NCBI GenBank assembly: GCA_963838905.1 | Contig: CAWITE010000028.1 | Span: 148,865-180,864 of the forward strand | DNA length: 32,000 nucleotides | Source of the DNA: an uncultured Acidobacteriota bacterium | GTDB taxonomy: Bacteria; Acidobacteriota; Terriglobia; Terriglobales; Acidobacteriaceae | Direction of reading: 5' to 3' | In this document: positions 710-28,678 of the stretch, in pieces | Layout: every line of letters begins with the position of its first letter | Numbering within the stretch: position 1 is the stretch's first letter | Translations under genes and position numbers: made by a program | Notes under the pieces: generated by a model | The model's input: the letters and a program-made list of their open reading frames with translations, nothing else | Database searches by the model: none | What the model was told of the DNA's origin: nothing

Positions 710-730
710 CTCCCGAATAACTGGTGTTCT

Positions 731-787
731 CTCGAAAACCTCGCGCCCTCTCGAAAACCTCGCGCCCTCTCGAAAACCTCGCGCTCC
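731..787. repeat. Tandem direct repeat, 3 x 19 bp (ctcgaaaacctcgcgccct)
   Basis: Units at 731..749 and 750..768 are identical. The unit at 769..787 differs at 2 positions. The array lies in the intergenic region about 165 bp upstream of the AMIN-domain gene. Confidence 0.9.
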
Positions 788-951
788 CGAAGACTTTAGT
801 CCTCCTGCTAACTTGCGCCCTGCCGAATTCGAAGTCGGGCGAGTTCTTGAGCAACCGGCACCAAATCATCCCTGATGACTTTGGTGCTTGCCGCTAGACT
901 TCTCTCTATCGCAGGCCAGTGGTATCTTTGCAGTAAGTACTCTATTCTGCG

Positions 952-2385
952 ATGAAGTCCCAGCCATGCGTTCGGAGCGCGGTCGTTGCGCTTGCACTGC
1001 TCACAGGATTGTTGATTGCCTCGGGCGGAGCCCAATCGACTCCAAAATTGCTGGCAACTACGGACACTCCGATCTTCGTTCGCAGCGTGCGCGTCTTGCC
1101 TGGGCCGGCGGTGGAGATCCTGTCCAGCCGCCCGCTCGTGCCCGCCATCAGCACGCTGGACAATCCGCCACGGCTGGTTATTGATCTTCCGAATGCTGAT
1201 CTGCCTGCGAACTTATCTGGGAACAGCAATCGCATCGACTCGGCCGCTCAGGAGATTCGCCAGGTCCGCGTCAACCAATATCAGAAAGCTCCCCCAGTCA
1301 CGCGCGTGGTGGTTGATTTGGTTAAGCCGGTTGGGCACACTTGGGACGCGGCCGGCAATCGCTTGATGGTTCGTCTGCGCTCCTCGGATCAAGTGACCGC
1401 CAAGCCGCCGTCCGTCCCGGCTTTCACGCAAGGTATCCAGCCGGCCGCGGTTCCGCTCGGACCGGGCTCCTCCGGTACGGTTGTTCTGGCGGGAAGCCGA
1501 GCCGCCGCGGGTTCTTCGGTGACTGCAGGTTCGGAGACGTCCGTGCTGCGGTTGCAACGAGGCGGCGAAGTGCTAGTCTGCCCGGGGACGACCGTATCGG
1601 TCACGTCTGCGCAAAGCGGGAATACGCTGATGCTGGGGATGAACACGGGAGCGCTCGAAGCTCACTACAAGCTGGACGCATCGGCGGATTCGATTCTGAC
1701 GCCTGATTTCCGCATCTTGCTGGCGGGTCCGGGCGAGTTCCACTACGCCGTCAGCGCCGACTCGCGGGGCAATACCTGTGTCCGCGCCTTGCCCGGGAAC
1801 ACTGCTTCTGTCATCGTTTCCGAACTGTTGGGAGAAGGGAATTATCAGGTCAAGCCCACTGAGCAAATTGTGTTTCACTCTGGCCGCCTGAATCTGGTGG
1901 ACGCCGCCGTGCCTGCCCGTTGTGGCTGCCCGCCGCCGGAAATCCCCGTGATGCGGGCGTCCGCCGCGCCTGCGCCTGCGGTCTCCGATGCGAAGCAACC
2001 TTCATCCATGGACTTGGCGCAGCCCAGAGACAGAGTTAAGCCTGTGACGCCTGCTGCTTCGGGCAGGCCATCAAATGTTACGTTGCCCGGCGAGGCGGCG
2101 GCGCTGCCACCGGAGACGGCTGCTTTGCCACCGTCCAAGCCGAACGACGTTCATGTGCAGGTGGAAGCTCCGTTTGTCTTTCGTGCGGCAGATATGCCTG
2201 CAAACAATCCTCCGGGCCCGAAGCCGGCTCCAATCCCCGATGCGCAGTCTCTGCCGGTGCGCGACTTGCCGCGTCCGGCGACGTTCGAGACCGGGGTTCT
2301 GCCTCCCGCTCAAAGTCAGGCAAAACAGGTCCACCACGGAGCGTTCGCCAAAATCAAGGGTTTCTTCTCAGCGATCTTTGGCTAG
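952..2385 (+). CDS. Secreted AMIN-domain protein with a FecR-like middle region and a Pro-rich C-terminus
   Basis: N-terminal signal peptide (MKSQPCVRSAVVALALLTGLLIASGGAQS). AMIN-like segment VEILSSRPL...PPRLVIDLPNADL...VRVNQYQKAPPVTRVVVDL...GNRLMVRL. The C-terminal 150 aa are Pro/Ala-rich. Confidence 0.72.
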   Translation: MKSQPCVRSAVVALALLTGLLIASGGAQSTPKLLATTDTPIFVRSVRVLPGPAVEILSSRPLVPAISTLDNPPRLVIDLPNADLPANLSGNSNRIDSAAQEIRQVRVNQYQKAPPVTRVVVDLVKPVGHTWDAAGNRLMVRLRSSDQVTAKPPSVPAFTQGIQPAAVPLGPGSSGTVVLAGSRAAAGSSVTAGSETSVLRLQRGGEVLVCPGTTVSVTSAQSGNTLMLGMNTGALEAHYKLDASADSILTPDFRILLAGPGEFHYAVSADSRGNTCVRALPGNTASVIVSELLGEGNYQVKPTEQIVFHSGRLNLVDAAVPARCGCPPPEIPVMRASAAPAPAVSDAKQPSSMDLAQPRDRVKPVTPAASGRPSNVTLPGEAAALPPETAALPPSKPNDVHVQVEAPFVFRAADMPANNPPGPKPAPIPDAQSLPVRDLPRPATFETGVLPPAQSQAKQVHHGAFAKIKGFFSAIFG

Positions 2386-2476: not shown

Positions 2477-3322
2477 ATGCCAGATTCCTCCAGGTCACAA
2501 AGCCTGGCTTTTTCGAGCCTGCTCGGCAGTGGCGAATTAGATCAACATCGGTCCCGCCATTTCATGCGGGGCTTCTTAGCCCAGTCGATGGAGCTGGCAG
2601 CGCTGGTGGCGATTGCTACGTACTTAGGGCATAACCCGCGACTCGGCCCGGGACTTGGCCCAACGATCGCGAACATCACTCCGATTTCCTACCCGTTTTC
2701 TTCAGACGAGACTGGTGGCCAGGGAGGCGGCGGTGATCGCGACAAGCTTGCGCCCTCCCGCGGTGCGTTGCCCAAGATGACGCTGGATGATCAATTGACT
2801 CCGGCGGAAGCGGTTGTTCACAATCTTGATCCCAAGTTGCCCGAGCCACCGAGTGTGATGGCGTTATCGGCTGTCAGATTACCTCAGCTTGGACAACTCG
2901 GGGATCCACTAACCGCAGTTCAGGGACCGCCTTCGGCCGGCCCCGGACGCGATGGTGGAATTGGCCAGGGATGTTGTGGCGGAGTGGGGCCGAAGAACGG
3001 TCCGGGCTTCGGCCCTTACGATCAAGGTAATGTCTTCTCCCCGGGCAAAGGCGGCGTGACCGCGCCGCGTCCAATCTATGACCCTGATCCTGAATACTCC
3101 GACGCCGCGCGCAGGGCCAAGTACCAGGGCTCGGTGCTTTTGTGGCTGGTGGTCGCGCCCAACGGACGTCCACGCAACATTCGCGTGCAGCGTTCTTTGG
3201 GCATGGGTCTGGATGAAAAGGCAATTGAGGCCGTGAGCCAATGGCGGTTTCAGCCGGCCACGCTAAACGGCCAACCCGTCGCGGTGCAGATCAACGTGGA
3301 AGTCAGCTTCCGGTTATATTGA
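2477..3322 (+). CDS. TonB family protein (energy-transducer C-terminal domain)
   Basis: The C-terminus YDPDPEYSDAARRAKYQGSVLLWLVVAPNGRPRNIRVQRSLGMGLDEKAIEAVSQWRFQPATLNGQPVAVQINVEVSFRL is a TonB-C fold signature. The start is set at ATG 2477, which follows GCAGGAG. The longer ORF from 2075 overlaps the upstream gene and was not used. Confidence 0.8.
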   Translation: MPDSSRSQSLAFSSLLGSGELDQHRSRHFMRGFLAQSMELAALVAIATYLGHNPRLGPGLGPTIANITPISYPFSSDETGGQGGGGDRDKLAPSRGALPKMTLDDQLTPAEAVVHNLDPKLPEPPSVMALSAVRLPQLGQLGDPLTAVQGPPSAGPGRDGGIGQGCCGGVGPKNGPGFGPYDQGNVFSPGKGGVTAPRPIYDPDPEYSDAARRAKYQGSVLLWLVVAPNGRPRNIRVQRSLGMGLDEKAIEAVSQWRFQPATLNGQPVAVQINVEVSFRLY

Positions 3323-4591: not shown

Positions 4592-6280
4592 ATGACTCCT
4601 GCAACCGTTCGTGGCAGCGGCTTTATGTCGCCGAGTCGCGCCATGTTTCTTAACCTCGCTCTTTGTTTCTTGTGCCTGCGGTTCCTGTGCCATGCCGCTG
4701 GCGCAGAGCAGAATGCGCCCTCGAAAATAATCGCGCTTCGTGCCTCCCGAATGCTGGATGTGAACAGCGGCAGCATGGTTCGTGATCCCGTGATTCTGAT
4801 TCAGGGTGACAAGATTACGTCTGCAGGATCTTCCGTGAAAGTTCCAGCTGAGGCGGAAGTCGTGGATCTGGGCGATGCCACTCTTTTGCCCGGGCTCATC
4901 GACTGCCATACTCATCTCATGGCCCGCATGTCCGACGATCCCCAAGGCTACGGGCTGACCTTGCTTACCAAGTCGCAGGCTTTTCGCGCACTGGAAGGCG
5001 CCGCCGACGCTAGGGTTACCTTGCATGCCGGTTTTACCGCTGTGCGTGATGTCGAAAGCGAAGGCTCCGGTTATGCCGACGTCGCCCTTCGGGATGCGAT
5101 CAATCAGGGCCTCGTGGAAGGTCCGCGCATGCAGGTGGCTACTCGTGGGATCGCGGCAGTCGGCAAGTACTTCCCCTTCGATATCTCTCCCGACCTTGTG
5201 GATTTTCCTACCGGCGCCCAAATGATCAGCGGAGCTGAAGAAGCGCGCCGAGCTGCTCGCGAGCAAATCGGACATGGCGCGAACCTGCTCAAGGTTTATG
5301 CCGATTGGGGTGCTCCCACACTGACTATCGATGAGATCCGGCCCATCGTCGAGGAGGCCCACAAGTCCCAACTAAAAGTGGCCGCCCACGCGGACAGCCC
5401 GGAAGGCATTCGCAACGCCCTGACCGCCGGTGTGGATTCAATCGAACACGGGCACCAAGCGGACCGCAGCTCTTTCGAGCTAATGAAACAGAAAAATGCT
5501 TTCTGGGTACCGACCAAGGGCCAGTACTTCTATGCTGTGGACACGGCGAAGTCTCCGCAACCACGCAAACACATGGAAGAGACTCTGCAACGCGCGCGGC
5601 AGAATATTTCAACTGCCCGCGAGTTGGGCGTGAAAATCGCAAATGGTTTCGATCCCGCCAGCGCCGGGGAACACGGCAAGAACGCGCACGAGATCATTGC
5701 CATGAGCAAGCTTGGATTGTCGCCGCTCGAAGCAATCCGCGCAGCGACGACGAATGCAGCCGAATTGATGGGATGGCAGGACAAGATAGGATCAATCGAG
5801 ACAGGAAAATATGCCGATTTCATCGCTGTTTCGGGAGATCCGATTGCCGACATTGGCGAACTCGAGCACGTCAAGTTCGTCATGAAAGGCGGAGTGGTTG
5901 TGAAGAACGAGTTCGCCCCCCTTAGACTGTTACCGCATGACAGCTTCAGCACGAATGGACAATCTGGTATTTTTGATGGTCGGAGTCTTATGTCCAAGGA
6001 CACACAGGCCCGCCGCTTTCTGGTTCGCGGTCGCGTGCAAGGAGTAGGGTTCCGCTGGTTTGTGGAACGCGAGGCGCACATTCTTGGCATTGCCGGTTGG
6101 GTGCGCAATAATGCGGACAGCAGCGTGGAAGTGCTGGCCATGGGCACCCGCGATCAACTGGCTGGATTGCGTTCGCGCCTGCGCGAGGGTCCGCGCGCCG
6201 CCCGCGTGGACGATGTTGAGGAGTCTGAAGCCAAGCCTGTCTCTGGTCTTACAAGCTTTCGCATCGAAGGAGCCTGGTAA
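4592..6280 (+). CDS. Metal-dependent amidohydrolase (COG1228-like) with signal-like N-terminus, reading in frame into an acylphosphatase domain
   Basis: HxH motif LIDCHTHLM. Family-typical C-terminal segment DPIADIGELEHVKFVMKGGVVVKN. No stop codon occurs before the acylphosphatase sequence. The start is ambiguous: ATG 4592 follows AGGGGGA, and the alternatives are 4562, 4625 and 4646. Confidence 0.8.
   Translation: MTPATVRGSGFMSPSRAMFLNLALCFLCLRFLCHAAGAEQNAPSKIIALRASRMLDVNSGSMVRDPVILIQGDKITSAGSSVKVPAEAEVVDLGDATLLPGLIDCHTHLMARMSDDPQGYGLTLLTKSQAFRALEGAADARVTLHAGFTAVRDVESEGSGYADVALRDAINQGLVEGPRMQVATRGIAAVGKYFPFDISPDLVDFPTGAQMISGAEEARRAAREQIGHGANLLKVYADWGAPTLTIDEIRPIVEEAHKSQLKVAAHADSPEGIRNALTAGVDSIEHGHQADRSSFELMKQKNAFWVPTKGQYFYAVDTAKSPQPRKHMEETLQRARQNISTARELGVKIANGFDPASAGEHGKNAHEIIAMSKLGLSPLEAIRAATTNAAELMGWQDKIGSIETGKYADFIAVSGDPIADIGELEHVKFVMKGGVVVKNEFAPLRLLPHDSFSTNGQSGIFDGRSLMSKDTQARRFLVRGRVQGVGFRWFVEREAHILGIAGWVRNNADSSVEVLAMGTRDQLAGLRSRLREGPRAARVDDVEESEAKPVSGLTSFRIEGAW
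5990..6280 (+). CDS. Acylphosphatase (nested, in-frame; possibly an independent gene)
   Basis: MSKDTQARRFLVRGRVQGVGFRWFVEREAHILGIAGWVRNNADSSVEVLAMG... contains the acylphosphatase signatures V-x-G-x-V-Q-G-V-x-F-R and G-W-V-R-N. ATG 5990 follows GGAG at 5982..5985. Confidence 0.6.
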   Translation: MSKDTQARRFLVRGRVQGVGFRWFVEREAHILGIAGWVRNNADSSVEVLAMGTRDQLAGLRSRLREGPRAARVDDVEESEAKPVSGLTSFRIEGAW

Positions 6281-19900: not shown

Positions 19901-20278
19901 GCTTTCGGCACCTTCGGTGATCTCGGTCGGGACTCGATCTTTGGCCCCGGACTTAGCAACGTGGATTTCTCCATCACGAAGAACACACGGCTGACGGAAC
20001 GACTGAACCTGCAATTGCGCGCAGAGTTCTTCAATATTTTCAACCATCCGAATTTTGCCCTGCCGGCGCACACCATTATTCCGGGATATGTGGACAACGG
20101 CAGTCCGGGCAGTCCACAGGTTGTGCCGAATCCCGCCGCCCACGTGAACGGCGACATCACGCAACCGCTGCTACCCATGGGCCTGATCACGCAGACGCCC
20201 GATGTCGCACAAACAAACCCTGGCCTCGGCGGGGGTGGCCCACGTGTGGTTCAACTGGCCGCGAAGTTCACATTCTAG
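16961..20278 (+). CDS. TonB-dependent receptor with N-terminal carboxypeptidase-regulatory-like domain
   Basis: Signal peptide, then a CarboxypepD_reg-like segment (GSIRGKVVDPNGNAIVGAKLTAKNRATGQMRDAATGDDGAYVLAELPAGEYALTAEY). A plug region (LNGRDF) follows, then a long beta-barrel ending in the aromatic terminus KFTF. The RBS AAGGAGA precedes the ATG. Confidence 0.9.
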   Translation: MSGQQSIVGGNRTIQHLMLVSILLWLPCLLLAQSFRGSIRGKVVDPNGNAIVGAKLTAKNRATGQMRDAATGDDGAYVLAELPAGEYALTAEYGGLSPVGQNVIVNVGSDTTANFDLTRVEKHLEQLTVTGEAPVIDTTRDVLSEVVDQKLVAELPLNGRDFGKLVALSPGATVDPSGVAGTQGGFGQFNINGNRDRSNNYTLDGTDNNDPFFNNSALNQTGIGGAPASLLPIDAIQEFNLQSQFGAEYGRNSGSVVNIVTRSGTNKLHGSGFEFFRNSALDARNYFNTEPQKSEFQNNNFGASLGGPIVKDKTFFFGAYEGQRERVGSDFLLLVPTQSQIQQARTIAGAINGTPSNPVINPGLDAILAFYPKSDTSQIPGVVRDTNNGNNFIAKIDENLTNTELLTGRYAFSQSYQVFPFGSPGGFGTGSRLPQFAQTSPTRVQVVSVSLLSTLSPSKINEVRFGYSRYRTSFSSLDANFDPNSIGLNFGTGKLGLPEFDFTNIENLGATGFSIPRGRTSQSFQILDNFTWLKGRHTFKFGGEFRRAAISNFNDNLERGIFQFTAGVGLSPDPVVDALADFYTGGTQDTNFCCSFVSVDAGNTQRTTYNNGFSFFAQDDYRMTSTLTVNFGLRWEYFGPLSEQNNLLSNLGRDGNLALVGTDGLDGLYNRDLHDFAPRLGFAWQAAKNTVVRAGYGIYYDYVPQDLFIANFTSSAGVVTNPIGPKAVVPLSFDPTAFNGTNSTPNPPIMNGVASPPYSIFVTPRNFRSPYTQNWNFNVQQKLAENASFEARYVGSKGSRLVRLTDLNEPNANGVRPNPNYGAMDELTPESSSSYNALQAIGRIQQNHGFSGFAAYVWSKAIDDASDGIDFVPGAAFPQDPGNLPAERGPSLFDTRNRFTAAVNYDVPAWKAARGFGSGWQLNTIITVQSGRPIPIANSTDTSGRFYFNQRPNVVPGVNSILPHWNPSTGYLNPLAFVQPAFGTFGDLGRDSIFGPGLSNVDFSITKNTRLTERLNLQLRAEFFNIFNHPNFALPAHTIIPGYVDNGSPGSPQVVPNPAAHVNGDITQPLLPMGLITQTPDVAQTNPGLGGGGPRVVQLAAKFTF

Positions 20279-20327
20279 GACGGATCGTGTGGCGCGGGCG
20301 CCCCCACCCGCGTCATGTTCGTGCCCG

Positions 20328-21165
20328 CTAGGTATTCACGTCTGCCACGATCTCCGGCAAGACCGCCCGCAGCAGCGCCACGAAGTCTCCCTTAACCCGC
20401 TCGCCAGTCGCGAGCACGTCTCCGTGGCTGAGCACGTCATCGGAAATCCCCGCCGCCATGTTGGTCACGCAGGAAATGGCCAGCACCTTGATTCCCATGT
20501 GCCGAGCGGCGATGACTTCAGGAATCGTCGACATGCCCACCAGATCCGCGCCCATCGTACGCAGGTATCGAATCTCCGCTGGAGTCTCGTAACTCGGGCC
20601 CAAGAGTCCCGCGTAGACACCTTGATATACCGTCTTGCCCAAGTGGACGCGCGGCTCGCAGCGCGATCTCGCGATACGGCTTCGAGTACGCCTGAGTCAT
20701 GTCGGGAAATCGCGGTCCGAAGCGATCGTCGTTAGGACCGGTCAGCGGATTTTGTCCCTGCAGATTGATGTGGTCTGTAATCACGACCAATGCACCCTGT
20801 TTGTATTCGAGATTGATGCCCCCGGCGGCGTTGGTCAGGATTACCGCACGGATGCCCATTCTCCCAAACGCGCGGATGGGAAATGCGACCTCGTTCGGAG
20901 AATAGCCTTCGTACAAGTGCACCCGTCCCTGCATAGCCGCCACGGCAATGGAGCCAACTTTCCCGATCACCATATGACCGGCATGGCCGATTGCAGTGGA
21001 ACGCGGGAAGTAAGGAATATTCGCGTAGGGGATTCGCGTTGCTTCAGAGAGCTCGTCGGCAAAGCCGCCTAGACCCGAGCCCAGAACCAGTCCGATGGAT
21101 GGAGAAAGTTGAGTCTGCAAAAGCAGAAAGTTCGCGGCAGATTCAGCGTTGGTGAAGTCGTCCAT
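20328..21165 (-). pseudogene. Purine nucleoside phosphorylase (PunA/PNP type) split by a frameshift near 20643..20652
   Basis: The 5' ORF (21165..20518) matches PNP up to ...[13 protein letters not shown]. The 3' ORF (20642..20328) continues in another frame with [48 protein letters not shown]. Together they make one full-length PNP. Confidence 0.8.
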
Positions 21166-21230
21166 AAGGGGCCAGCTCCTGGCTACATCTTGTCCACTGA
21201 AAACTGTGAAACATCAACTAACAACTGCTT

Positions 21231-22823
21231 CTAGAACTTCTTTTCGAATACAGCGAACTCCTCTTCAAGTTTCCACTGCATCTGGGCGCGTTCGCTGCCA
21301 TCCAGAAATTTCTGACACGCGGCAGATACTTTCCTCGAGCCGGCACGATCGTCCGTACACGCCGCGACCGGACGGAAGTCGGATGCCCACAGGCTGGAAC
21401 CTGCCAGAAAGCTATGCTCGAGGCTCATTCGCGCCATGCGCTTTAAGTCTTTGTAACCGAGGAAATCATAAGTGTGAACTGCACGCAGATACTCATGAAT
21501 CATATCGGAGCGCGATACTCCCTCGTCATCAGTGGCCAGGGCTACCGGCACGCCGTACCGCAGATAGATCGGCAGAGGATGGGCGTCGCCCTTTACGCCC
21601 AGGATTACATCATTGGAAGTCAGGCAGATTTCGACCAGAACATTCCTTCGTGCCATCTCGCGCACCAAATCGATCGGGTGATCCTCGTTCATCACGTCCA
21701 CGCCATGGCCGATGCGCTCTGCGTGTCCGCGCTCGACTGATTCGCGGATATGGAAGCGCAGGCCCTCCGGCGGCACCAGGCCCATGGCCAGCTCCCCGGC
21801 GTGCAGGCTGATGTGCACCTTGGGATAGACGCCGTGCAGGTAGTCAAGCATCTTCATGTGCAACTCGAAATCGTGCATGGGGACGTACCAATCTTCAGGC
21901 TGGACGAGGTTCAGGCCCACACAACGCGGATCCGTTTGCGCCAGTTCGAAGCCGAAAAGAATCTCTGCGAAGACCATCTCGCGAGGCAGCCCACGCAGCA
22001 CCTGATACAAGTAGCGAATCTTAACCGCGCATCCCGGGTTTGCTTCCACAGTCCCGCACTTGAGGACAGACCGCATTTTGCCCTCGTCTTCATCGAGCCG
22101 CTTGCTGGTAGTGGCGACGATCTCCTTGAGACCATCGGTCAGCAACTTCTCACGCATATGGGCGAAGTCATCGTCCCATCCCAGCTTCGCGCCGAGTTGC
22201 CCGGACTGAACTGAATCCGCGGTATACATCAACTCGAGATATTGAAGACGGTCTGCCGCCGCGCGCGATGCCGCCTCGGCAAGAGCGTCCCCGGTACGGT
22301 TATGAGTCGCCAACGAAAACTTGTCGAAGGTGGCGAAGAAATGATCGTGCCCCGATTCTTCCCCCGGTGCCCAATTACGCATCGACCAGGCGTCGACGAT
22401 CGAGTTGTAGAGAACATGGTCGCCGTATGCACAACGGATCGCCGGCTTGCTCGTGTACTTTGCGCAGGAATCGTCACACGGAGGGGCTATAAGAATCGAA
22501 GTCGTACGGTCCACGCACAGATTGTCGCTCGCGGCATAGTCGATCAGATTCTCCGCGTACAGCGCGCCGCTCAAATGGATATGCAGATCGCCACCTTTGG
22601 GCATGTCGCGCAGGAACGCCAACTGAAGTGAAGGCTGCCGCCGGATGGACTCGAAATGGCGCGCAGTCCGCTGCTCAGCGCTTGGACCGGATTGCGCCGA
22701 CGCAGAACCGGCGAGCCACGCGATGATTAGAAGAACAGCCGACCGACCGACGGGCCCCACAGCGTCTCCCGTAACAAAGATCTTTCTGGAAACGGGCATT
22801 TTACCCTGACGCAATGAAAACAT
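21231..22823 (-). CDS. Adenosine deaminase family protein, long ADGF/ADA2-like form with signal peptide
   Basis: Metal and catalytic motifs GGDLHIHLSG, HISLHAGE, RIGHGVDV and ALATDDEGVSRSD. The N-terminus has a hydrophobic signal region (AVLLIIAWLAGSASAQS). The start is 22823 or 22799. Confidence 0.85.
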   Translation of the reverse strand: MFSLRQGKMPVSRKIFVTGDAVGPVGRSAVLLIIAWLAGSASAQSGPSAEQRTARHFESIRRQPSLQLAFLRDMPKGGDLHIHLSGALYAENLIDYAASDNLCVDRTTSILIAPPCDDSCAKYTSKPAIRCAYGDHVLYNSIVDAWSMRNWAPGEESGHDHFFATFDKFSLATHNRTGDALAEAASRAAADRLQYLELMYTADSVQSGQLGAKLGWDDDFAHMREKLLTDGLKEIVATTSKRLDEDEGKMRSVLKCGTVEANPGCAVKIRYLYQVLRGLPREMVFAEILFGFELAQTDPRCVGLNLVQPEDWYVPMHDFELHMKMLDYLHGVYPKVHISLHAGELAMGLVPPEGLRFHIRESVERGHAERIGHGVDVMNEDHPIDLVREMARRNVLVEICLTSNDVILGVKGDAHPLPIYLRYGVPVALATDDEGVSRSDMIHEYLRAVHTYDFLGYKDLKRMARMSLEHSFLAGSSLWASDFRPVAACTDDRAGSRKVSAACQKFLDGSERAQMQWKLEEEFAVFEKKF

Positions 22824-22874
22824 GGAAACAACGCGACACTACATTCCACGTCAGTCGAGATCCCCCAAAAACAC

Positions 22875-22991
22875 ATCTCCGCGTACTCTGCGGCTGTTCT
22901 CAGCGGTCTCCGCGTTTTAGGATTTTGGTTTCGCCGGGACAGATCTTAAATCGCAGAGGTCGCGGAGAACAGCCGCAGAAGGCGCGGAGAT
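22875..22991. repeat. Compound palindrome (family F: ATCTCCGCG...CTGCGGCTGTTCTC)
   Basis: The 27-nt arm at 22875..22901 pairs with 22965..22991 (3 mismatches). Additional tctccgcg / cgcggaga copies lie inside. Confidence 0.75.
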
Positions 22992-23296
22992 GCCTCCAAA
23001 CTCCTTATGCAACAGGGTTTTGCCCGCGATTTTCACAAATACAATCAGTGTCCCTTGACAGGGCTAAACCGCGTCGGACAAGAAGATCCGCGAAAATTGC
23101 GCATTGGCGCACAGCACAAAGCTCTGTGACGGATGAACTGCACCAACTCTGCGGCACCGGCCTGTGAACCATCTGCACTCGATTGAAAATTCGGCAGATA
23201 CGTTTGCACATTTTTCATTGACTCTAAAAACGAAAAGAGTAAAACCATAATCGTTCTTTGACAACTTCTGAAGTTTTCCCGGTTGGTGCGGCGTCC

Positions 23297-23660
23297 GGGG
23301 CTCAAGCGAAGTCACCCTCTACATTGCAAAATGACTGAGGGAGGGTTAGCAAGGGTCTATAGCAAAGTGCTGGTCGAGGCGAACAAGAAGATCTGTCGAA
23401 GGCAGGATAGAGTCCTGAGGCGTTGGGGTGGTTTATCCGGTTGGCGGTAAGCCCGGAGCCCGAGCAAAGATCGCGAGTTGCCATCCGCAAGGACCGCAAC
23501 TCATGCAGGTCAGCGAGGGTCTAAAGCGAGCTACTGGCCGAGACGAATGATCCTAACACTACCTCGGGACTCTTAATTTGTCTGCAGCAGTTGGTGGCCA
23601 GTGGTTAGCCTGGGCTGCAGCTCTCCCCAAGCAGATTGCGAACCGGTAGCAGAGGCTACC
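23297..23660 (+). ncRNA. Candidate structured non-coding RNA (family unknown)
   Basis: The region has no credible ORF. A 12-bp long-range helix pairs 23409..23420 with 23562..23573 (11 WC plus 1 G-U). The hairpin at 23475..23502 is capped by CC-GCAA-GG. Other stems are 23436..23440/23453..23457, 23314..23319/23341..23346, 23582..23620 and 23645..23660. A 40-nt module is duplicated (23344..23383 and 23508..23547; 31/40 identical). The G-U pair and the GNRA loop favour the + strand. Confidence 0.35.
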
Positions 23661-23674
23661 CACTGTCCACAGCC

Positions 23675-24367
23675 TTAAGGCCCCTGCTGTATTTGGAACC
23701 GTTCCTTTGGCACCAGCCGCGTCCGATAAATCGAGTTAGTCGCAGCCACTTCAGCGACCGCGTCCACGTTCAGTTCGTACGAGCCCCGCGGCAGGTTCTC
23801 TCCGAAAGGAATCTCAGTCCCCGCATCGCCCTTCTTCAACGGAAAACGCTGGTAGCCGATGGCCGTAGCCCGTCCAATCTCATTCACTGCCATCACGATT
23901 ACGGTCAAATCAAAATCCTGCTCGGTCTGGTTGGAAACGATAATTGAACCCTCCAGCCTTTGGCCGTTCACTTTGGGATAGCGCCCCCACTGCGCCATGA
24001 GCGGCGCTACGACTGTCAGAACCAGTTGTTGGTTGCGTTGAACAGCGGGCCGGCCGCTGTCCGTCACAGTCACGGTAAACCGGAATTCACCGGTTTCCAT
24101 TGGAGCGCCGCTCAGAATTCCATCTTGCCCAAGCACAATGCCGGCGGGCAGAGCACCCTCCGTGATTTCCCACCGCGAGGGAGTGATGCCCCCGCGTGCT
24201 TGCAAACGAGTTTCATAGTGCTGTCTGAGATAGGCCTTGGGTAAGCTCGTGGTTTGAATCACAAGAGGTTCGCCAGTCGCCGCACCTTGTTGCGCTCTAG
24301 CTACGCCGGCAAACACGCAGAAACAACAGAGTAAGAGAACGAGCATTCGTCGGTGTGCGAGCGGCAT
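23675..24367 (-). CDS. Secreted protein with putative Ig-like (cadherin/He_PIG-like) domain
   Basis: Start at the ATG that is the complement of 24365..24367. The product has a signal peptide (MPLAHRRMLVLLLCCFCVFAGVARAQQ). The segment LPKAYLRQHYETRLQARGGITPSRWEITEGALPAGIVLGQDGILSGAPMETGEFRFTVTVTDSG matches the 'putative Ig' repeat pattern. The longer ORF to 24967 is antisense to the HD gene and was rejected. Confidence 0.6.
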   Translation of the reverse strand: MPLAHRRMLVLLLCCFCVFAGVARAQQGAATGEPLVIQTTSLPKAYLRQHYETRLQARGGITPSRWEITEGALPAGIVLGQDGILSGAPMETGEFRFTVTVTDSGRPAVQRNQQLVLTVVAPLMAQWGRYPKVNGQRLEGSIIVSNQTEQDFDLTVIVMAVNEIGRATAIGYQRFPLKKGDAGTEIPFGENLPRGSYELNVDAVAEVAATNSIYRTRLVPKERFQIQQGP

Positions 24368-24442
24368 CTCAAGTCGGAAGGGCACAGAAGCGATTATAGC
24401 CTCGTGCCTCTCGACGCAGCCGCCACCCGCACGATAAGCTAG

Positions 24443-25024
24443 ATGGTTTCCGAGGGGGCGGATTGCATGCGCGATGCGGTCGCACGGCTGTGGCCGGAGA
24501 TTCAGTGGATTGAGAAACCTAAGCTGCGGGAGCAGGTCACCCAGACCTGGATCAAAGCACTGGAACGCAGCCCGCTGAAACCTGATGACCTGAATCGCAT
24601 TCCGTTCACACTGCTCGTGCTCAACTGCCCAATCACTTTTATGGAGCATAAGCGCTGCGTGGTCCACATCGCACGTCAGAGTGCCGAGTCCATGCACGAA
24701 TTCATGGGCCGCGCGCTGCCGATTAACATGGACGTCGTAATCGCGGGCGCCATTCTTGCTGACGTCGGCAAGCTGCTCGAATACGAACTCGGACCCGACG
24801 GCAAGAGTCGCCAAAGTGAGCGCGGCGAAGCCTTGCGGCATCCGTTCACGGGAGTCGCGCTGGCGCTCGAATGCGGTGTGCCCGACGAAGTTTGCCACGT
24901 TATCGCGGCTCATGCCGCCGAAGGTGATCTGGTGAAACGCACCACCGAAGCGTACATCGTGCACCACGCTGACTTCATGGCATTCTTGCCGTTTAAGAAT
25001 CCGAAGAACGTGAAGGTGAAATGA
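24443..25024 (+). CDS. HD-superfamily-like protein with a variant metal dyad
   Basis: EHKRCVVHIARQSAE...VVIAGAILADVGKLLEY...VIAAHAAEGD...IVHHADF follows the HD-domain spacing. The canonical HD dyad reads AD. Confidence 0.7.
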   Translation: MVSEGADCMRDAVARLWPEIQWIEKPKLREQVTQTWIKALERSPLKPDDLNRIPFTLLVLNCPITFMEHKRCVVHIARQSAESMHEFMGRALPINMDVVIAGAILADVGKLLEYELGPDGKSRQSERGEALRHPFTGVALALECGVPDEVCHVIAAHAAEGDLVKRTTEAYIVHHADFMAFLPFKNPKNVKVK

Positions 25025-25054
25025 GTTATGGCTTAAACATTGTTCCTTACTCTT

Positions 25055-25127
25055 GTCATTCCGAGCGAAGCGAGGAATCTGCTGTTTTTTGCGCAGAATT
25101 CAGATCCCTCGCTTCGCTCGGGATGAC
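25055..25127. repeat. Inverted pair of family A units forming a 27-bp-arm hairpin
   Basis: gtcattccgagcgaagcgaggaatctg (25055..25081) pairs with cagatccctcgcttcgctcgggatgac (25101..25127). There are 2 mismatches and a 19-nt T-rich loop. Confidence 0.85.
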
Positions 25128-25162
25128 AAGTCGATGGAAATGAAGCAACCCAAGGAGATTCC

Positions 25163-26617
25163 TTGTCTGCCGCTAAAGAAGCAGTCGCCACCAAAGAGAC
25201 CATTACCGCGAAGATGTCGCGCTGGGCAGCGACTCTCGAATACAAGCATGTCTCGCAGGATGCCGTGTATCAAGCCAAACGCTTCCTGCTGGATTCCATC
25301 GGCTGCGCCCTCGGCGGCTACCAACAACACGATGTAAAGATTGCACTCGAAGTACTCGATGAGATCGCGGGCAAAGGTGCGGCTACGGTAATTGGCACCG
25401 GCAAGCGCATCGATCCCGTCTCGGCCTCGCTCGCCAACGCCCTCATGATCCGCTGCATGGATTACAACGACATTTACTGGAAGCAGGATCCATCGCATCC
25501 TTCCGACATTTTTCCTGCGGCATTCGCGTGCTGCGAGCGCACCAAGAGCAACGGAAAGGAATTGATCGTCGGCCTGGTGCTGGGGCACGAATTTGAAATG
25601 CGTTTCTGCGAAGCCGCGTTCCCCGGAATCCGCGAGCGCGGCTGGCATCACGCAACCTTAACCGCCTTCGTCTCACCCTTCGTCGCCGGACGCGCTCTGC
25701 ATCTCCCGTGGGAACAGATTCAACATGCCGTAGGCATCTCGGCGAGCCGCCACGTCACGCTGGGAGCGGTAACTGCCGGCAAGCTCACCATGATGAAGAA
25801 CACGGTCGACCCAATGGCAATCCAGAGCGGCGTGCTCGCCGCGCTCATGGCGGAGAAGGGCTACACCGGACCCGAGCACGTAGTCGATGGAAAAGAAGGA
25901 TTGACGCACGTCTTTGGGCCGGAGTGGAAGCTGAATATTTTAACTGACGGACTCGGCGATTCGTGGCGCATCACGCAGTGCGGCATGAAGGCGTTTCCAA
26001 CCGAAGCGCTGACCCATACGCCAATTTCTGCGGTGCTCGACATCGTGAAATCGAATGACTTGAAACCGGATGAGGTGACCAAGATTCAGATCCGATCGCT
26101 GGCTCGCGCCGCCGACATTCTTTCCGATCCCAGCAAATATGATCCTCGGAGCAAAGAGACGGCCGATCATTCTCTGCCTTACGTAATCGCAGCGGCGCTG
26201 GCGGAGCGGAAGGTGACGCCGGTGCAGTTCACCATGGAAAAGATCATGGACCCGACTATTCGTGCCCAACTGCAGAAAGTCGAAGTCGTGGCCGATCCGG
26301 AAATCGAGAAAGTGTTTCCCGCAATGCAGCGGGTGATCGTAAACATCACGACCACCGACGGTCGCATGTTCACCAAGCAACTCGACTATCCCAAGGGCGA
26401 CCCGCGCAACCCACTTACCGATCAGGAAGTCGAAGAAAAATTCGCGGCACTGGCCGAAAGCGTATTGTCGCAGCGCGCCCAGCAAAAGCTGAAAGACGCC
26501 ATCTGGAACCTGGAGAGCATCGGCTCAGTAAGCAAGCTGATGGCGCTGATGAAAGCAGACGTGCGAGCGAAAAAGCTTGCCCCGCGCAAGCCGACGAGCA
26601 AGAAAAAGCGATTGTAG
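25163..26617 (+). CDS. MmgE/PrpD-family protein (2-methylcitrate dehydratase-like)
   Basis: AKRFLLDSIGCALGGY, the DYNDIY region, GWHHATL and full family length (484 aa). TTG 25163 follows AAGGAGA. The alternative start is ATG 25214. Confidence 0.87.
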   Translation: MSAAKEAVATKETITAKMSRWAATLEYKHVSQDAVYQAKRFLLDSIGCALGGYQQHDVKIALEVLDEIAGKGAATVIGTGKRIDPVSASLANALMIRCMDYNDIYWKQDPSHPSDIFPAAFACCERTKSNGKELIVGLVLGHEFEMRFCEAAFPGIRERGWHHATLTAFVSPFVAGRALHLPWEQIQHAVGISASRHVTLGAVTAGKLTMMKNTVDPMAIQSGVLAALMAEKGYTGPEHVVDGKEGLTHVFGPEWKLNILTDGLGDSWRITQCGMKAFPTEALTHTPISAVLDIVKSNDLKPDEVTKIQIRSLARAADILSDPSKYDPRSKETADHSLPYVIAAALAERKVTPVQFTMEKIMDPTIRAQLQKVEVVADPEIEKVFPAMQRVIVNITTTDGRMFTKQLDYPKGDPRNPLTDQEVEEKFAALAESVLSQRAQQKLKDAIWNLESIGSVSKLMALMKADVRAKKLAPRKPTSKKKRL

Positions 26618-26673
26618 AAACGTTACTTGCAACGTTTGTTAAGTTTGTCATTCCGAGCGAAGCGAGGAATCTG
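26613..26673. repeat. Family C hairpin (tgtagaaacgttacttgcaacgtttg) plus a family A unit
   Basis: The 7-bp stem aaacgtt/aacgttt spans 26618..26637 and overlaps the prpD-like stop codon. gtcattccgagcgaagcgaggaatctg at 26647..26673 is identical to 25055..25081. Confidence 0.75.
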
Positions 26674-26734
26674 CATTTTGTTAATGGATGACGGGCCTCT
26701 CGCCCGGCCTCCACAGAAAAGCCGGGAGTAATTC

Positions 26735-28678
26735 ATGCCCCAGACCATCGTTGAAAAAATCGCGCAAGCCCACCTCGCTGAAGGCCCCAATCGCCCGCTG
26801 CGGACTGGCGACTTCCTCTCCATTCGCCCGCACCACGTGATGACTCACGACAACACCTCAGCAGTGATGAGCAAGTTCAAAGGCATCGGCGCGAAAAAGA
26901 TTCACGATCCCAAGCAACTCGTCTTCGCTCTCGACCACGACATCCAAAATAAAGACGAAGCCAACCAAAAAAAATATCGGGCTATCGAGGCATTCGCCAA
27001 GGAACACGGTGTCGACTTTTACCCCGCGGGCTCAGGCATCGGCCATCAAATCATGGTGGAGCGCGGATACGTCGTCCCCGGCTCATTCGTGGTCGCCTCC
27101 GACTCGCACTCGAACATGTACGGCGCGCTGGGAGCGATCGGGACGCCCATCGTGCGCACCGACGCCGCCGCAGTCTGGGCCACGGGAGAATTCTGGTGGC
27201 AGATTCCACGTTCGGTCGAGGTCGTGCTCGAAGGCAAATTACCCGACGGCGCGACCGGCAAAGACATAATCATTACCTTGTGCGGCCTCTACAACCACGA
27301 TGAGGTTTTAAACGCCGCCGTCGAATTCAGCGGCCCCGGGGTTGCCGGTCTCTCCATGGGCGCGCGCCTTTCCATCTCCAACATGACCACCGAGTGGGGG
27401 CCACTCGTGGGCTGGTTTCCGGTGGATGAAGTAACGATCAAATATCTAAAGAATGTACATGTGCGGCTGAAGGCCACGGGTGTGGAACGGTTTTCGGAGA
27501 AAGACATCGAGAGTTGGACAAAGAATTCGCCACGACCCGATGCCGATGCAGTCTACGCGGCTCGGATCGTGCTTAATCTCGGACAGGTGACGCCACACGT
27601 ATCGGGTCCCGATACAGTGCAGACCATGGCTTCTCTCGCCGAGATGGAAAAGAAAAGGGTCGCGATCCAGAAAGCTTACTTGCTCTCTTGCGTGAACTCG
27701 CGCGTCGAAGATCTCGAAGCTGCGGCGAAGGTTTTGAAAGGCAAGAACGTCGCGGCGGGCGTGCAATTCTATCTTGGAGCGGCCAGCAAGTGGGTACAGG
27801 AAGAAGCCGAAAAGCGCGGCATCTGGCAAACGTTGCTTGATGCCGGAGCGAATCCCCTCCCCGCCGGTTGTGGCCCGTGCATCGGTCTGGGAGTAGGACT
27901 GCTCGAGCCCGGCGAAGTCGGAATCTCTGCCACCAATCGCAATTTCAAAGGCCGCATGGGATCGCGCGATGCCAAGTGTTACCTGGCGAGCCCCGAGGTA
28001 GTCGCCGCTTCTGCCGTAGCCGGCTACATTTGCGGACCGCATGAGATGACCGGCGGCGATCCGTCGCGCAGCTACACCGAATTTGCCGCAGGTACCGAAG
28101 CAGAGAAAGTCGACATTCTCCCCGGCTTCCCCGAGAGAGTCCATGGCCGCCTCGTTTTCCTGCCACAAGACAACGTGAACACCGATGCGATCTACGGAAA
28201 GGACTACACTTACCGCGATGATGTCCCGAAAGAATTGATGGCGAAGGTCGTAATGGAAAACTACGATCCGCAGTTCGCGTCTCGCACTCGCGCCGGCGAC
28301 GTGGTCGTCAGCGGATTCAACTTCGGAACGGGGTCGAGCCGCGAGCAAGCTGTGACTTGCCTCAAAGCCAAAGGCATTCCGCTGGTGATTGCGGCCAGTT
28401 TTTCGCAGACCTATCTGCGCAACGCGTACAACAATGGCTTCCTCTGCGTCGAAGTACCGGACCTTGTGAAGCGCCTACGCGAGCAATTGGCCAACGAAAT
28501 CGCTGCGAAAGAAAAAACTATCATTCCGGGCGAAGAAATCGATATCGACTTCACCTCGGGAGTGATCCACTGGCGCGGCGAAAAGTTCGCGTTTCCCGCG
28601 CTAGGGAGCGTGCCACAGTCACTGGTCATCGCCGAGGGAGTGGAGAACCTGGTAGCGAAGCGCCTGGGCCTGAGCTGA
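26735..28678 (+). CDS. Aconitase-family hydro-lyase, fused large+small (swivel) domains; homoaconitase / short 'Aquifex-type' aconitase-like
   Basis: HVMTHDNT, SDSHSNMYGALGA, Fe-S ligands SCVNSR and GCGPCIG, ATNRNFKGRMG and the C-terminal swivel domain GFNFGTGSSREQA. The product is 647 aa. The RBS GGGAG precedes the ATG. Confidence 0.9.
   Translation: MPQTIVEKIAQAHLAEGPNRPLRTGDFLSIRPHHVMTHDNTSAVMSKFKGIGAKKIHDPKQLVFALDHDIQNKDEANQKKYRAIEAFAKEHGVDFYPAGSGIGHQIMVERGYVVPGSFVVASDSHSNMYGALGAIGTPIVRTDAAAVWATGEFWWQIPRSVEVVLEGKLPDGATGKDIIITLCGLYNHDEVLNAAVEFSGPGVAGLSMGARLSISNMTTEWGPLVGWFPVDEVTIKYLKNVHVRLKATGVERFSEKDIESWTKNSPRPDADAVYAARIVLNLGQVTPHVSGPDTVQTMASLAEMEKKRVAIQKAYLLSCVNSRVEDLEAAAKVLKGKNVAAGVQFYLGAASKWVQEEAEKRGIWQTLLDAGANPLPAGCGPCIGLGVGLLEPGEVGISATNRNFKGRMGSRDAKCYLASPEVVAASAVAGYICGPHEMTGGDPSRSYTEFAAGTEAEKVDILPGFPERVHGRLVFLPQDNVNTDAIYGKDYTYRDDVPKELMAKVVMENYDPQFASRTRAGDVVVSGFNFGTGSSREQAVTCLKAKGIPLVIAASFSQTYLRNAYNNGFLCVEVPDLVKRLREQLANEIAAKEKTIIPGEEIDIDFTSGVIHWRGEKFAFPALGSVPQSLVIAEGVENLVAKRLGLS

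Follow-up and report, generated by a model that had tools for sequence, protein, structure and literature searches.

The described systems closest to the element studied here fall into three groups. The raiA motif RNA, OLE, ROOL and GOLLD are orphan non-coding RNAs (ncRNAs) that are encoded by stand-alone genes and are long, intricately folded, highly conserved and furnished with GNRA hairpins. Tandem or pseudo-symmetric riboswitches, such as the glycine tandem aptamers, the NAD+-I nadA motif and the c-di-AMP ydaO motif, contain two side-by-side homologous domains. RsmY, RsmZ, CsrB, CrcZ and 6S are trans-type small RNAs (sRNAs), with several paralogues per genome and internally repeated units. 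In Acidobacteria, the ncRNA candidates Acido-1 and Acido-Lenti-1 were described as unaffiliated with mRNAs (Weinberg et al. 2010, PMC2864571). The present work concerns a 32,000-nt stretch of DNA (the window) from an uncultured bacterium of the Acidobacteriaceae (assembly GCA_963838905.1, contig CAWITE010000028.1, positions 148,865 to 180,864 of the forward strand). In the gap between a gene of the adenosine deaminase (ADA) family (21231-22823, - strand) and a gene with a He_PIG Ig domain (23675-24967, - strand), the conserved unit at 23138-23582 of the + strand is very probably a complete stand-alone gene for a real structured ncRNA of a new family.

The new RNA shares with the orphan ncRNAs all the features named above, as well as a variable peripheral length, an occurrence in one lineage and the lack of a known function. 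It differs from them in having no Rfam match, in the phylum of its host, and in being built from tandem hairpin domains instead of multi-way junctions. Unlike OLE, it is not consistently accompanied by a particular protein gene, and unlike GOLLD and ROOL, it is not associated with phages or tRNAs; the viral contigs scanned gave a single match and the plasmids none, and a phage or plasmid origin was rejected on these grounds. With the tandem riboswitches it has in common the two side-by-side homologous domains, near-invariant internal loops and a closing helix coupled to a terminator U-run, but it is not located in a 5' untranslated region (UTR), each of its domains measures about 150 nt, and it has no Rfam match. 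Like the trans-type sRNAs, it has several paralogues per genome and internally repeated units, and the upstream block that is specific to its promoter resembles the GacA or CbrB upstream sites, which are known for the promoters of Rsm- and CrcZ-type sRNAs. In contrast to the sponge sRNAs, its loops are GNRA and lack GGA or A-rich motifs, and its unit is an ornate domain of 150 nt, not a short hairpin; it also has neither a 6S-like central bubble nor an Rfam match. Given that the defining features of orphan ncRNAs, tandem riboswitches and sponge sRNAs each fail, the RNA is filed as a new, previously undescribed family, rather than being assigned to a known family or treated as a variant within it.

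Results

Homologues were searched with an exact 22-base pattern, built from the positions common to the two copies of a 40-nt module that the initial annotation of this gap had described as a direct repeat (23344-23383 and 23508-23547; 31 of 40 positions, 78%, are indeed identical). The pattern matched at least 119 stretches in species-representative genomes and at least 120 in metagenome contigs. All named genome records among the matches listed belong to Terriglobia, Terriglobales, Acidobacteriaceae, Ca. Korobacteraceae or unclassified Acidobacteriota. Each metagenome-assembled genome (MAG) among these matches has one to three paralogous loci (for example L043, L103 and L126 in CAVTHC01, and L018 and L100 in CAVVLA01, where L numbers designate homologous loci), and both this distribution and these copy numbers are lower bounds, the most divergent members lying outside the reach of an exact 22-base pattern. 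In the alignment of the family, 110 of the 371 columns (about 30%) are invariant, and the syntenic position is kept even between lineages whose ADA-like neighbour has no more than about 60-70% protein identity.

The consensus fold, calculated with RNAalifold from 100 MAFFT-aligned sequences over positions 23246-23584, consists of two tandem long irregular hairpins with 101 pairs in total, D1 (23255-23402, + strand) and D2 (23409-23573, + strand), which are homologous to each other. The structured RNA (about 23252-23582, + strand) is predicted to be about 330 nt long, with D1 and D2 joined by a linker of 6 nt and a tail rich in U after D2. In this alignment, which was not fitted to the structure, standard pairs are found in 98.2% of the 10,083 pair cells, compared with 94.0% in shuffles and 37-44% when the partners were slid, 43 of the 101 pairs are changed on both sides (21.9 in shuffles, 13-20 when slid), and double-change cells number 453 (122 in shuffles, 37-128 when slid), all counts being per sequence and not per evolutionary event.

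The minimum free energy (MFE) structure of the single sequence with the corrected borders coincides with the comparative fold, with a z score of -3.91 on the + strand and -0.42 on the - strand. The region proposed by the initial annotation, 23297-23660, does very probably contain a real RNA on the + strand; its borders have moved to 23252-23582 and its architecture is that of two tandem homologous domains. A start at 23297 leaves out some 45 nt at the 5' end of the RNA, and with them the 5' strand (23255-23262) of the helix that closes D1. The MFE structure of 23297-23660 is a single long rod (z of -3.3 on + and -1.3 on -), which is an artefact of the wrong borders and was rejected because both the comparative data and the MFE structure of the corrected borders give two domains. 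A 138-nt unit cut according to the repeat period and folded alone gave a z score of about 0, its cut points being wrong.

D1 is closed by helix P1 (UCUUUGAC/GUCGAAGG; 23255-62 with 23395-402), followed by helix P1b (CUUCU/AGAAG; 23265-69 with 23386-90), which covaries (C-G 58, G-C 55, U-A 11). P1b was added by a mutual-information scan of 151 unique full-length sequences, which otherwise recovered the same helices as RNAalifold and gave neither a convincing pseudoknot nor long-range tertiary covariation. The 3' arm of D1 is the first copy of the 40-nt module (23344-23383) and pairs with the 5' arm at 23273-23313. The domain ends in the tip hairpin CAUU-GCAA-AAUG (23322-25, GCAA, 23330-33), the stem of which covaries; the stem proposed earlier at 23314-23346 is real and corresponds to this tip. 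The linker at 23403-23408 reads CAGGAU (CARGAU across the family) and is unpaired in the consensus fold. D2 is closed by a 12-bp helix (23409-20 with 23562-73) of 11 Watson-Crick pairs and one U-G pair, in which 7 of the 12 pairs are changed on both sides (for example C-G 77 and U-A 22). Its 3' arm, the second copy of the module (23508-23547), pairs with the 5' arm at 23431-23472, and GCAA (23487-90) forms the loop of its tip hairpin (23476-23501). Both this long-range helix (23409-23420/23562-23573) and the GCAA hairpin (given as 23475-23502) had been predicted from the one sequence alone, and both are now backed by compensatory changes in the 100 homologues.

Read on the + strand, the terminal loops are GNRA (GCAA, GCGA or GAAA) in all 100 sequences for D1 and in 97 of 100 for D2. 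The two domains also contain near-invariant internal loops, namely 5'-CCGGA/CUAAA-3', tandem purine 2x2 loops and the G-U-rich CGGUUGG/CUGGYCG. A local hairpin that had been placed at 23436-23457 is not part of the consensus and competes with the long-range CGGUUGG/CUGGYCG pairing; where G has changed to A in CCGGUUGG, which is rare, the compensating change is in the long-range CUGGYCG (columns 210:322 and 36:144, AU with n=3 in each) and not in the local partner. A two-tier G-quadruplex in GGUUGG..GG..GG is disfavoured, the G-to-A changes being compensated in the helical partner. Some smaller features of the initial annotation were likewise not recovered. Two of them, the stems at 23582-23620 and 23645-23660, are not within the conserved family, as homology stops at about 23579 in most loci. 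The short sub-repeats within the modules (agcaa against agcga) do not co-vary, with the second element of D2 being invariant GCGA and the first varying between A and G independently, and the stem following each module (tcga/tcga against ccga/tcgg) is absent from the consensus structure.

The two domains resemble each other beyond the 40-nt module. The profiles of D1 and D2 match each other with an E value of about 1e-9 in 197 of 198 cases, which indicates that the RNA arose by an old internal tandem duplication of a domain of ~150 nt; the 5' arms are also similar (UUUnCCGGUUGG..CCGGrGC.CrAGC). Both domains are kept in 195 of the 255 loci among the matches listed, and most of the others are truncated where a contig ends or have extra sequence inserted in D1. 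In thirteen of the listed loci, the tip of D1 is interrupted by an insert of 55 to about 700 nt, made up of successive GCAA/GNRA-capped hairpins, so that the length of the members ranges from about 330 nt to about 1 kb. These tip insertions behave as is typical of the peripheral elements of large structured RNAs. Members with inserts of 140 to about 700 nt are found at L232:1353-2036, L148:170-793, L037:3044-4033 (-), L205:4096-4557 and L039:740-1192.

G-U pairs occupy 2406 cells (23.9%) against 58 A-C cells, 31 pairs are Watson-Crick in some sequences and G-U in others, and the same positions read on the - strand are paired in 74.9% of the cells, compared with 98.2% on the + strand. This asymmetry, the drop in pairing on the - strand and the presence of GNRA loops on the + strand only assign the RNA to the + strand. 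No open reading frame (ORF) of >=30 aa is common to more than half of the 151 sequences, and a small ORF was discarded as an explanation, none being conserved. The nearest long ORF downstream is convergent in 126 of 157 cases (at least 80%), and several of the 31 same-strand calls are artefacts of antisense ORFs. A stand-alone gene on the + strand with no gene following it, as initially proposed, agrees with these observations.

The genomic context varies between loci. The ADA-like gene is divergent upstream and the He_PIG gene convergent downstream in one class; another has what we take, by eye from the sequences, to be a BNR/sialidase-like gene upstream and a DUF2961-like or PCC-beta-like gene convergent downstream. 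Given that the downstream gene is mostly convergent and that the contexts differ between loci, the RNA is neither a 5' leader nor specific to ADA. A leader would be followed on the same strand by a recurrent gene family, and the families found downstream are unrelated. A structured domain coupled to a terminator, which a leader may also have, is present, a T-run coming directly after the D2 closing helix in all 100 sequences; this arrangement fits an ordinary sRNA terminator equally well. At the level of the sequence, the properties of a stand-alone sRNA gene are found, that is, a predicted promoter and terminator, an intergenic position and no conserved ORF.

The homology detected by blastn extends in most loci from 23138 (or 23155, or 23210) to 23573-23591 of the window with 77-87% identity, and typically ends at ~23579. 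In the 100-sequence alignment, similarity collapses directly after CCUCGGGACUCUUA and the T-run. The segment between the T-run and the He_PIG stop codon (23583-23674), in which the two additional stems of the initial annotation lie, is conserved in close relatives only, and in distant loci of the same context the end of He_PIG lies only 10-20 nt past the T-run of the RNA. Since homology ends at the T-run, this segment is a lineage-specific spacer outside the family; it may be the 3' UTR of He_PIG.

Upstream of the RNA, a block of ~80 nt (23138-23217) is conserved in 100 of 100 aligned homologues. It contains the elements TGCAC (23139-43), CAC (23156-58), TGTG (23163-66), TGCAC (23174-78), TTG, AGATA and a T-run, which occur at fixed spacing in all paralogues. 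A loose composite motif of the block gave 177 matches in 1.6 Mb of fetched loci, 176 of them at 40-110 nt before D1. Because it is found essentially only in front of the RNA gene, the block is probably bound, as DNA, by a dedicated regulator, and the site would be centred at roughly -80 to -110. RNAalifold gave no conserved RNA fold for the block on either strand, and a 5' extension of the RNA was rejected for this reason and because the complementarity of CUGCACCAA/UUGGUGCGG (L019) shows no covariation. When compared by eye with the consensus sequences, a sigma-54 promoter (CTGCAC-N4/5-TTGA) misfits in the spacing and the GG of the -24 element, and the NtrC-like (TGCACC-N5-GGTGCA) and CRP-like (TGTGA-N6-TCACA) readings of the block misfit in the spacing and the right half-sites.

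The block is followed by a putative sigma-70-like promoter (23218-23245, + strand), consisting of the -35 element TTGACT (23218-23223), a 16-nt spacer and the -10 element TAAAAC (23240-23245). TTGAC is invariant and is separated by 32-33 nt from TCGTTC, the first conserved bases of the RNA, in 98 of 100 sequences, while the -10 hexamer occurs as TAAAAA, TAAAAC, TACAAC, TACAAA or TAGAAC. A generic scan missed this promoter because position 6 of the -10 element is not T. From this geometry, transcription would start near 23251-23254. At the other end, the U-rich tail UAAUUUGUC (UUAUUUUUU in most homologues; 23574-23582, + strand) directly follows the GC-rich closing helix of D2, and the 12 nt past the 3' helix contain on average 7.7 T, with a minimum of 6, in the 100 sequences. 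The helix and the tail would together form an intrinsic-terminator-like 3' end near 23580.

A search of the window against Rfam 15 (4227 models) gave no match at the gathering score and, for 23246-23584, none at E<=10. For the wider region 22780-23720, the only matches at E<=10 were two to microRNA models, far below the gathering scores. The novelty proposed initially is upheld by these results. The models of Rfam 15 include those for Acido-1, Acido-Lenti-1, RNase P, 6S, tmRNA, riboswitches, OLE, GOLLD, ROOL, raiA and HEARO; Acido-1 (RF01686) and Acido-Lenti-1 (RF01687) do not match the new RNA even at E<=10. Eighteen diverse homologous loci also gave no match to Rfam 15 on the RNA element, and no description of the RNA family was found in a literature search by taxon, topic and sequence string. 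A copy of Acido-Lenti-1 (RF01687, 47.1 bits, gathering score 37) is present at L064:2807-2852 (+), ~2.2 kb from the new RNA and unrelated to it in sequence.

Several specific identities were considered and rejected. A CsrA sponge of the CsrB/RsmZ type does not agree with loops that are GNRA in 97-100% of sequences or with a linker that reads CAAGAU instead of CAGGAU in about 40% of sequences. A relative of RNase P is contradicted by the absence of any RNase P model match at E<=10 and by a fold of two nested hairpins with no pseudoknot detected; CUGGCCGAGACGAAUGA (23533-23549) and GUCCGGGGCUC (23293-23303) recall the RNase P conserved regions CR-IV and CR-I, which we take to be a coincidence, with no model match. 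The tandem-repeat antitoxin RNA of a type III toxin-antitoxin system would lie directly upstream of a toxin gene of the ToxN/AbiE type, but most loci lack a downstream gene on the same strand, and the neighbours encode metabolic or secreted proteins.

The gap sequence is single-copy within the window, with no repeats elsewhere in it, and no tRNA or tmRNA was found. A database look-up of the exact proteins of both flanking genes returned no record. The ADA protein has thousands of relatives, and the synteny search started from the listed ones, which are 77-96% identical. The contigs of six ADA homologues, from MAGs of Terriglobales, share the order PrpD, hypothetical gene, He_PIG, gap, ADA and PNP, and the gap block 23010-23670 has 88-94% DNA identity where the ADA protein is 83-96% identical. 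In the alignment of seven syntenic sequences, 23253-23480 is nearly invariant and both flanks are variable. Two loci (L007 and L008) have ADA (77% identity) and lack both the He_PIG gene and the RNA block. In another (L004:2776-3882), a gene for a 368-aa ATPase of the AAA_15/SMC_N type lies between the RNA block and ADA, which indicates that the RNA keeps with the He_PIG side. A template repeat of a diversity-generating retroelement beside the Ig-like gene was rejected, since the proteins scanned in 20000-27000 have no reverse-transcriptase domain and the gap is unrepeated in the window.

Between the upstream block and the start of ADA there is an imperfect palindrome (22874-22992) whose arms of 50 nt are 82% complementary; it was the source of a spurious Rfam match to MIR1151. 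It is missing in several syntenic loci (L004-L006) and occurs at unrelated positions in others (for example L084:5075-5197, L206:2697-2811, L158, L190, L219 and L231), and on the latter grounds it behaves as a dispersed repeat similar to a repetitive extragenic palindrome (REP) or a miniature inverted-repeat transposable element (MITE).

A 5.8-kb metagenome contig (L152) carries two complete copies of the RNA gene, at 712-1014 (+) and 4784-5092 (-), which are convergent and ~3.8 kb apart. In L034, an orphan fragment at 2826-2877 (-), located ~1.3 kb downstream of a complete copy, contains only the last ~50 nt of D2, that is, the 3' arm and the closing strand. A large share of the metagenome contigs L136-L255 begin or end inside the RNA element (for example L137, L138, L141, L149, L155, L159, L175, L189, L203 and L214), which is the assembly behaviour expected of a conserved sequence common to paralogues and strains.

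Discussion

The account that we favour combines the RNA gene with a mechanism based on partner binding, and taken as a whole we consider it reasonably likely; the mechanism by itself, which we rank above the others considered, is put forward with clearly less confidence and is rather doubtful. According to it, the predicted sigma-70-type promoter, under the control of a regulator bound to the upstream block, would drive a + strand transcript of ~330 nt. This transcript would fold into D1 and D2, and the GC-rich closing helix of D2 with the U-run would end it. The RNA most likely acts in trans, given that there is nothing downstream to regulate and that one to three paralogues share the promoter block. 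The proposed binding sites are the two near-identical sets of invariant internal loops, at which one partner, a protein or possibly a small ligand, would be bound as a dimer or in two copies. In this way the partner would be titrated or scaffolded by the RNA under the control of the upstream regulator, and paralogues sharing this regulated promoter would set the dose, in analogy to RNAs of the Rsm/Csr or CrcZ type. A more far-reaching version, which is only a tentative possibility, is that of a large ornate pseudo-dimeric RNA specific to Terriglobia that senses or sequesters a global factor through its two invariant loop sets, with a dedicated transcription factor acting through the block and the GNRA arrays driving docking or assembly.

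A number of observations weigh against this account. The conserved neighbouring genes point to no partner protein or ligand, and the loops are GNRA and not the GGA or A-rich motifs of the known protein-sponge RNAs. Arrays of GNRA hairpins suit a role in RNA-RNA tertiary contacts or assembly at least as well as protein binding. With respect to the fold, the invariant columns of the core leave many of the proposed pairs with no covariation evidence. This includes the invariant consecutive G-U/U-G wobbles in GGUUGG/CUGGYC, of which D1 has four (23282-23285/23372-23375) and D2 a counterpart of three invariant G-U pairs (23441-23443/23535-23537), the pairing being a prediction in both cases; tandem G-U runs are known as metal-binding sites. 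As for the gene, the usual final T is absent from the -10 hexamer, the terminator 'stem' has 140 nt inside it, an unusual arrangement for intrinsic termination, and the transcript, its ends and its abundance are deduced from sequence.

The GNRA loops at both tips (97-100% of sequences) and the D1-tip inserts of 55 to about 700 nt, composed of GCAA-capped hairpin strings, would also be expected of an RNA that works through tertiary contacts alone, as a ribozyme or a self-assembling RNA in which GNRA loops dock into internal-loop receptors of the same or of another molecule. The near-invariant internal loops recall catalytic or receptor cores, and the pseudo-twofold architecture is compatible with such a role. 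It is nevertheless unlikely, given that neither pseudoknot nor tertiary covariation was detected, that the RNA bears no likeness to the models of known ribozymes or large ornate RNAs, that no substrate or cleavage site is evident, and that the dedicated, apparently regulated promoter suggests a regulatory function rather than a housekeeping catalytic one. A cis-acting sensor is less probable still. In such a sensor, tandem riboswitch-like aptamers would control a conditional terminator, with read-through, for example, as antisense into the convergent gene. Two homologous pocket-like domains do recall tandem riboswitches, the terminator is made by the domain-closing helix, as in expression platforms of the P1 type, the convergent gene often begins just 10-150 nt past the end of the RNA, and a competing CCGAG/CUCGG pairing can be drawn (23537-41/23563-67). 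However, among alternative anti-terminator pairings none is conserved or covarying, no Rfam riboswitch matches, and in 126 of 157 loci the nearest long ORF downstream runs the opposite way; the families found downstream are unrelated (He_PIG and, by eye, DUF2961-like and PCC-beta-like).

The remaining two readings treat the conserved block as something other than an RNA gene on the + strand, and both are very improbable. One is a REP/MITE-like DNA element, either a repeat in many copies or a mobile element, or what is left of such an element; the initial annotation had itself named a multi-copy REP element as a danger. One to three copies occur per genome, many metagenome contigs break inside the element, and a true dispersed palindrome adjoins it at 22874-22992. 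The asymmetry of G-U and A-C pairs between the strands is unlike that of a DNA palindrome, though, the geometry of promoter and terminator is fixed, and there is no transposase, terminal inverted repeat or target duplication. There is also one copy only in the 32-kb window, and its position is syntenic across lineages with ADA-like proteins about 60-70% identical. A REP-type repeat is ruled out by the strand asymmetry and the low copy number. Even less credible is a 5' leader or promoter region of the ADA-like/PNP operon on the - strand (21231-22823), which is suggested by the divergent ADA-like gene found 220-400 nt away in many loci. Read on the - strand, the pairs drop to 74.9% and the fold to a z score of -0.42. 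Many loci have no ADA neighbour, with BNR/sialidase-like genes upstream or PCC-beta-like genes downstream by eye, the ATPase gene intervenes in L004, and L007 and L008 have ADA with no block.

Terriglobia are dominant and among the most abundant soil bacteria, and they are hard to cultivate; to our knowledge, almost nothing is known about RNA-based regulation in these organisms. New classes of large structured RNAs are rare, and past ones led to ribozymes, riboswitches and ribonucleoprotein machines. The locus described here defines a strongly constrained RNA family, with clear borders, a fold supported by covariation and its own promoter block, and it offers several handles on this biology, namely the RNA itself, the putative regulator site and the one to three paralogues per genome.

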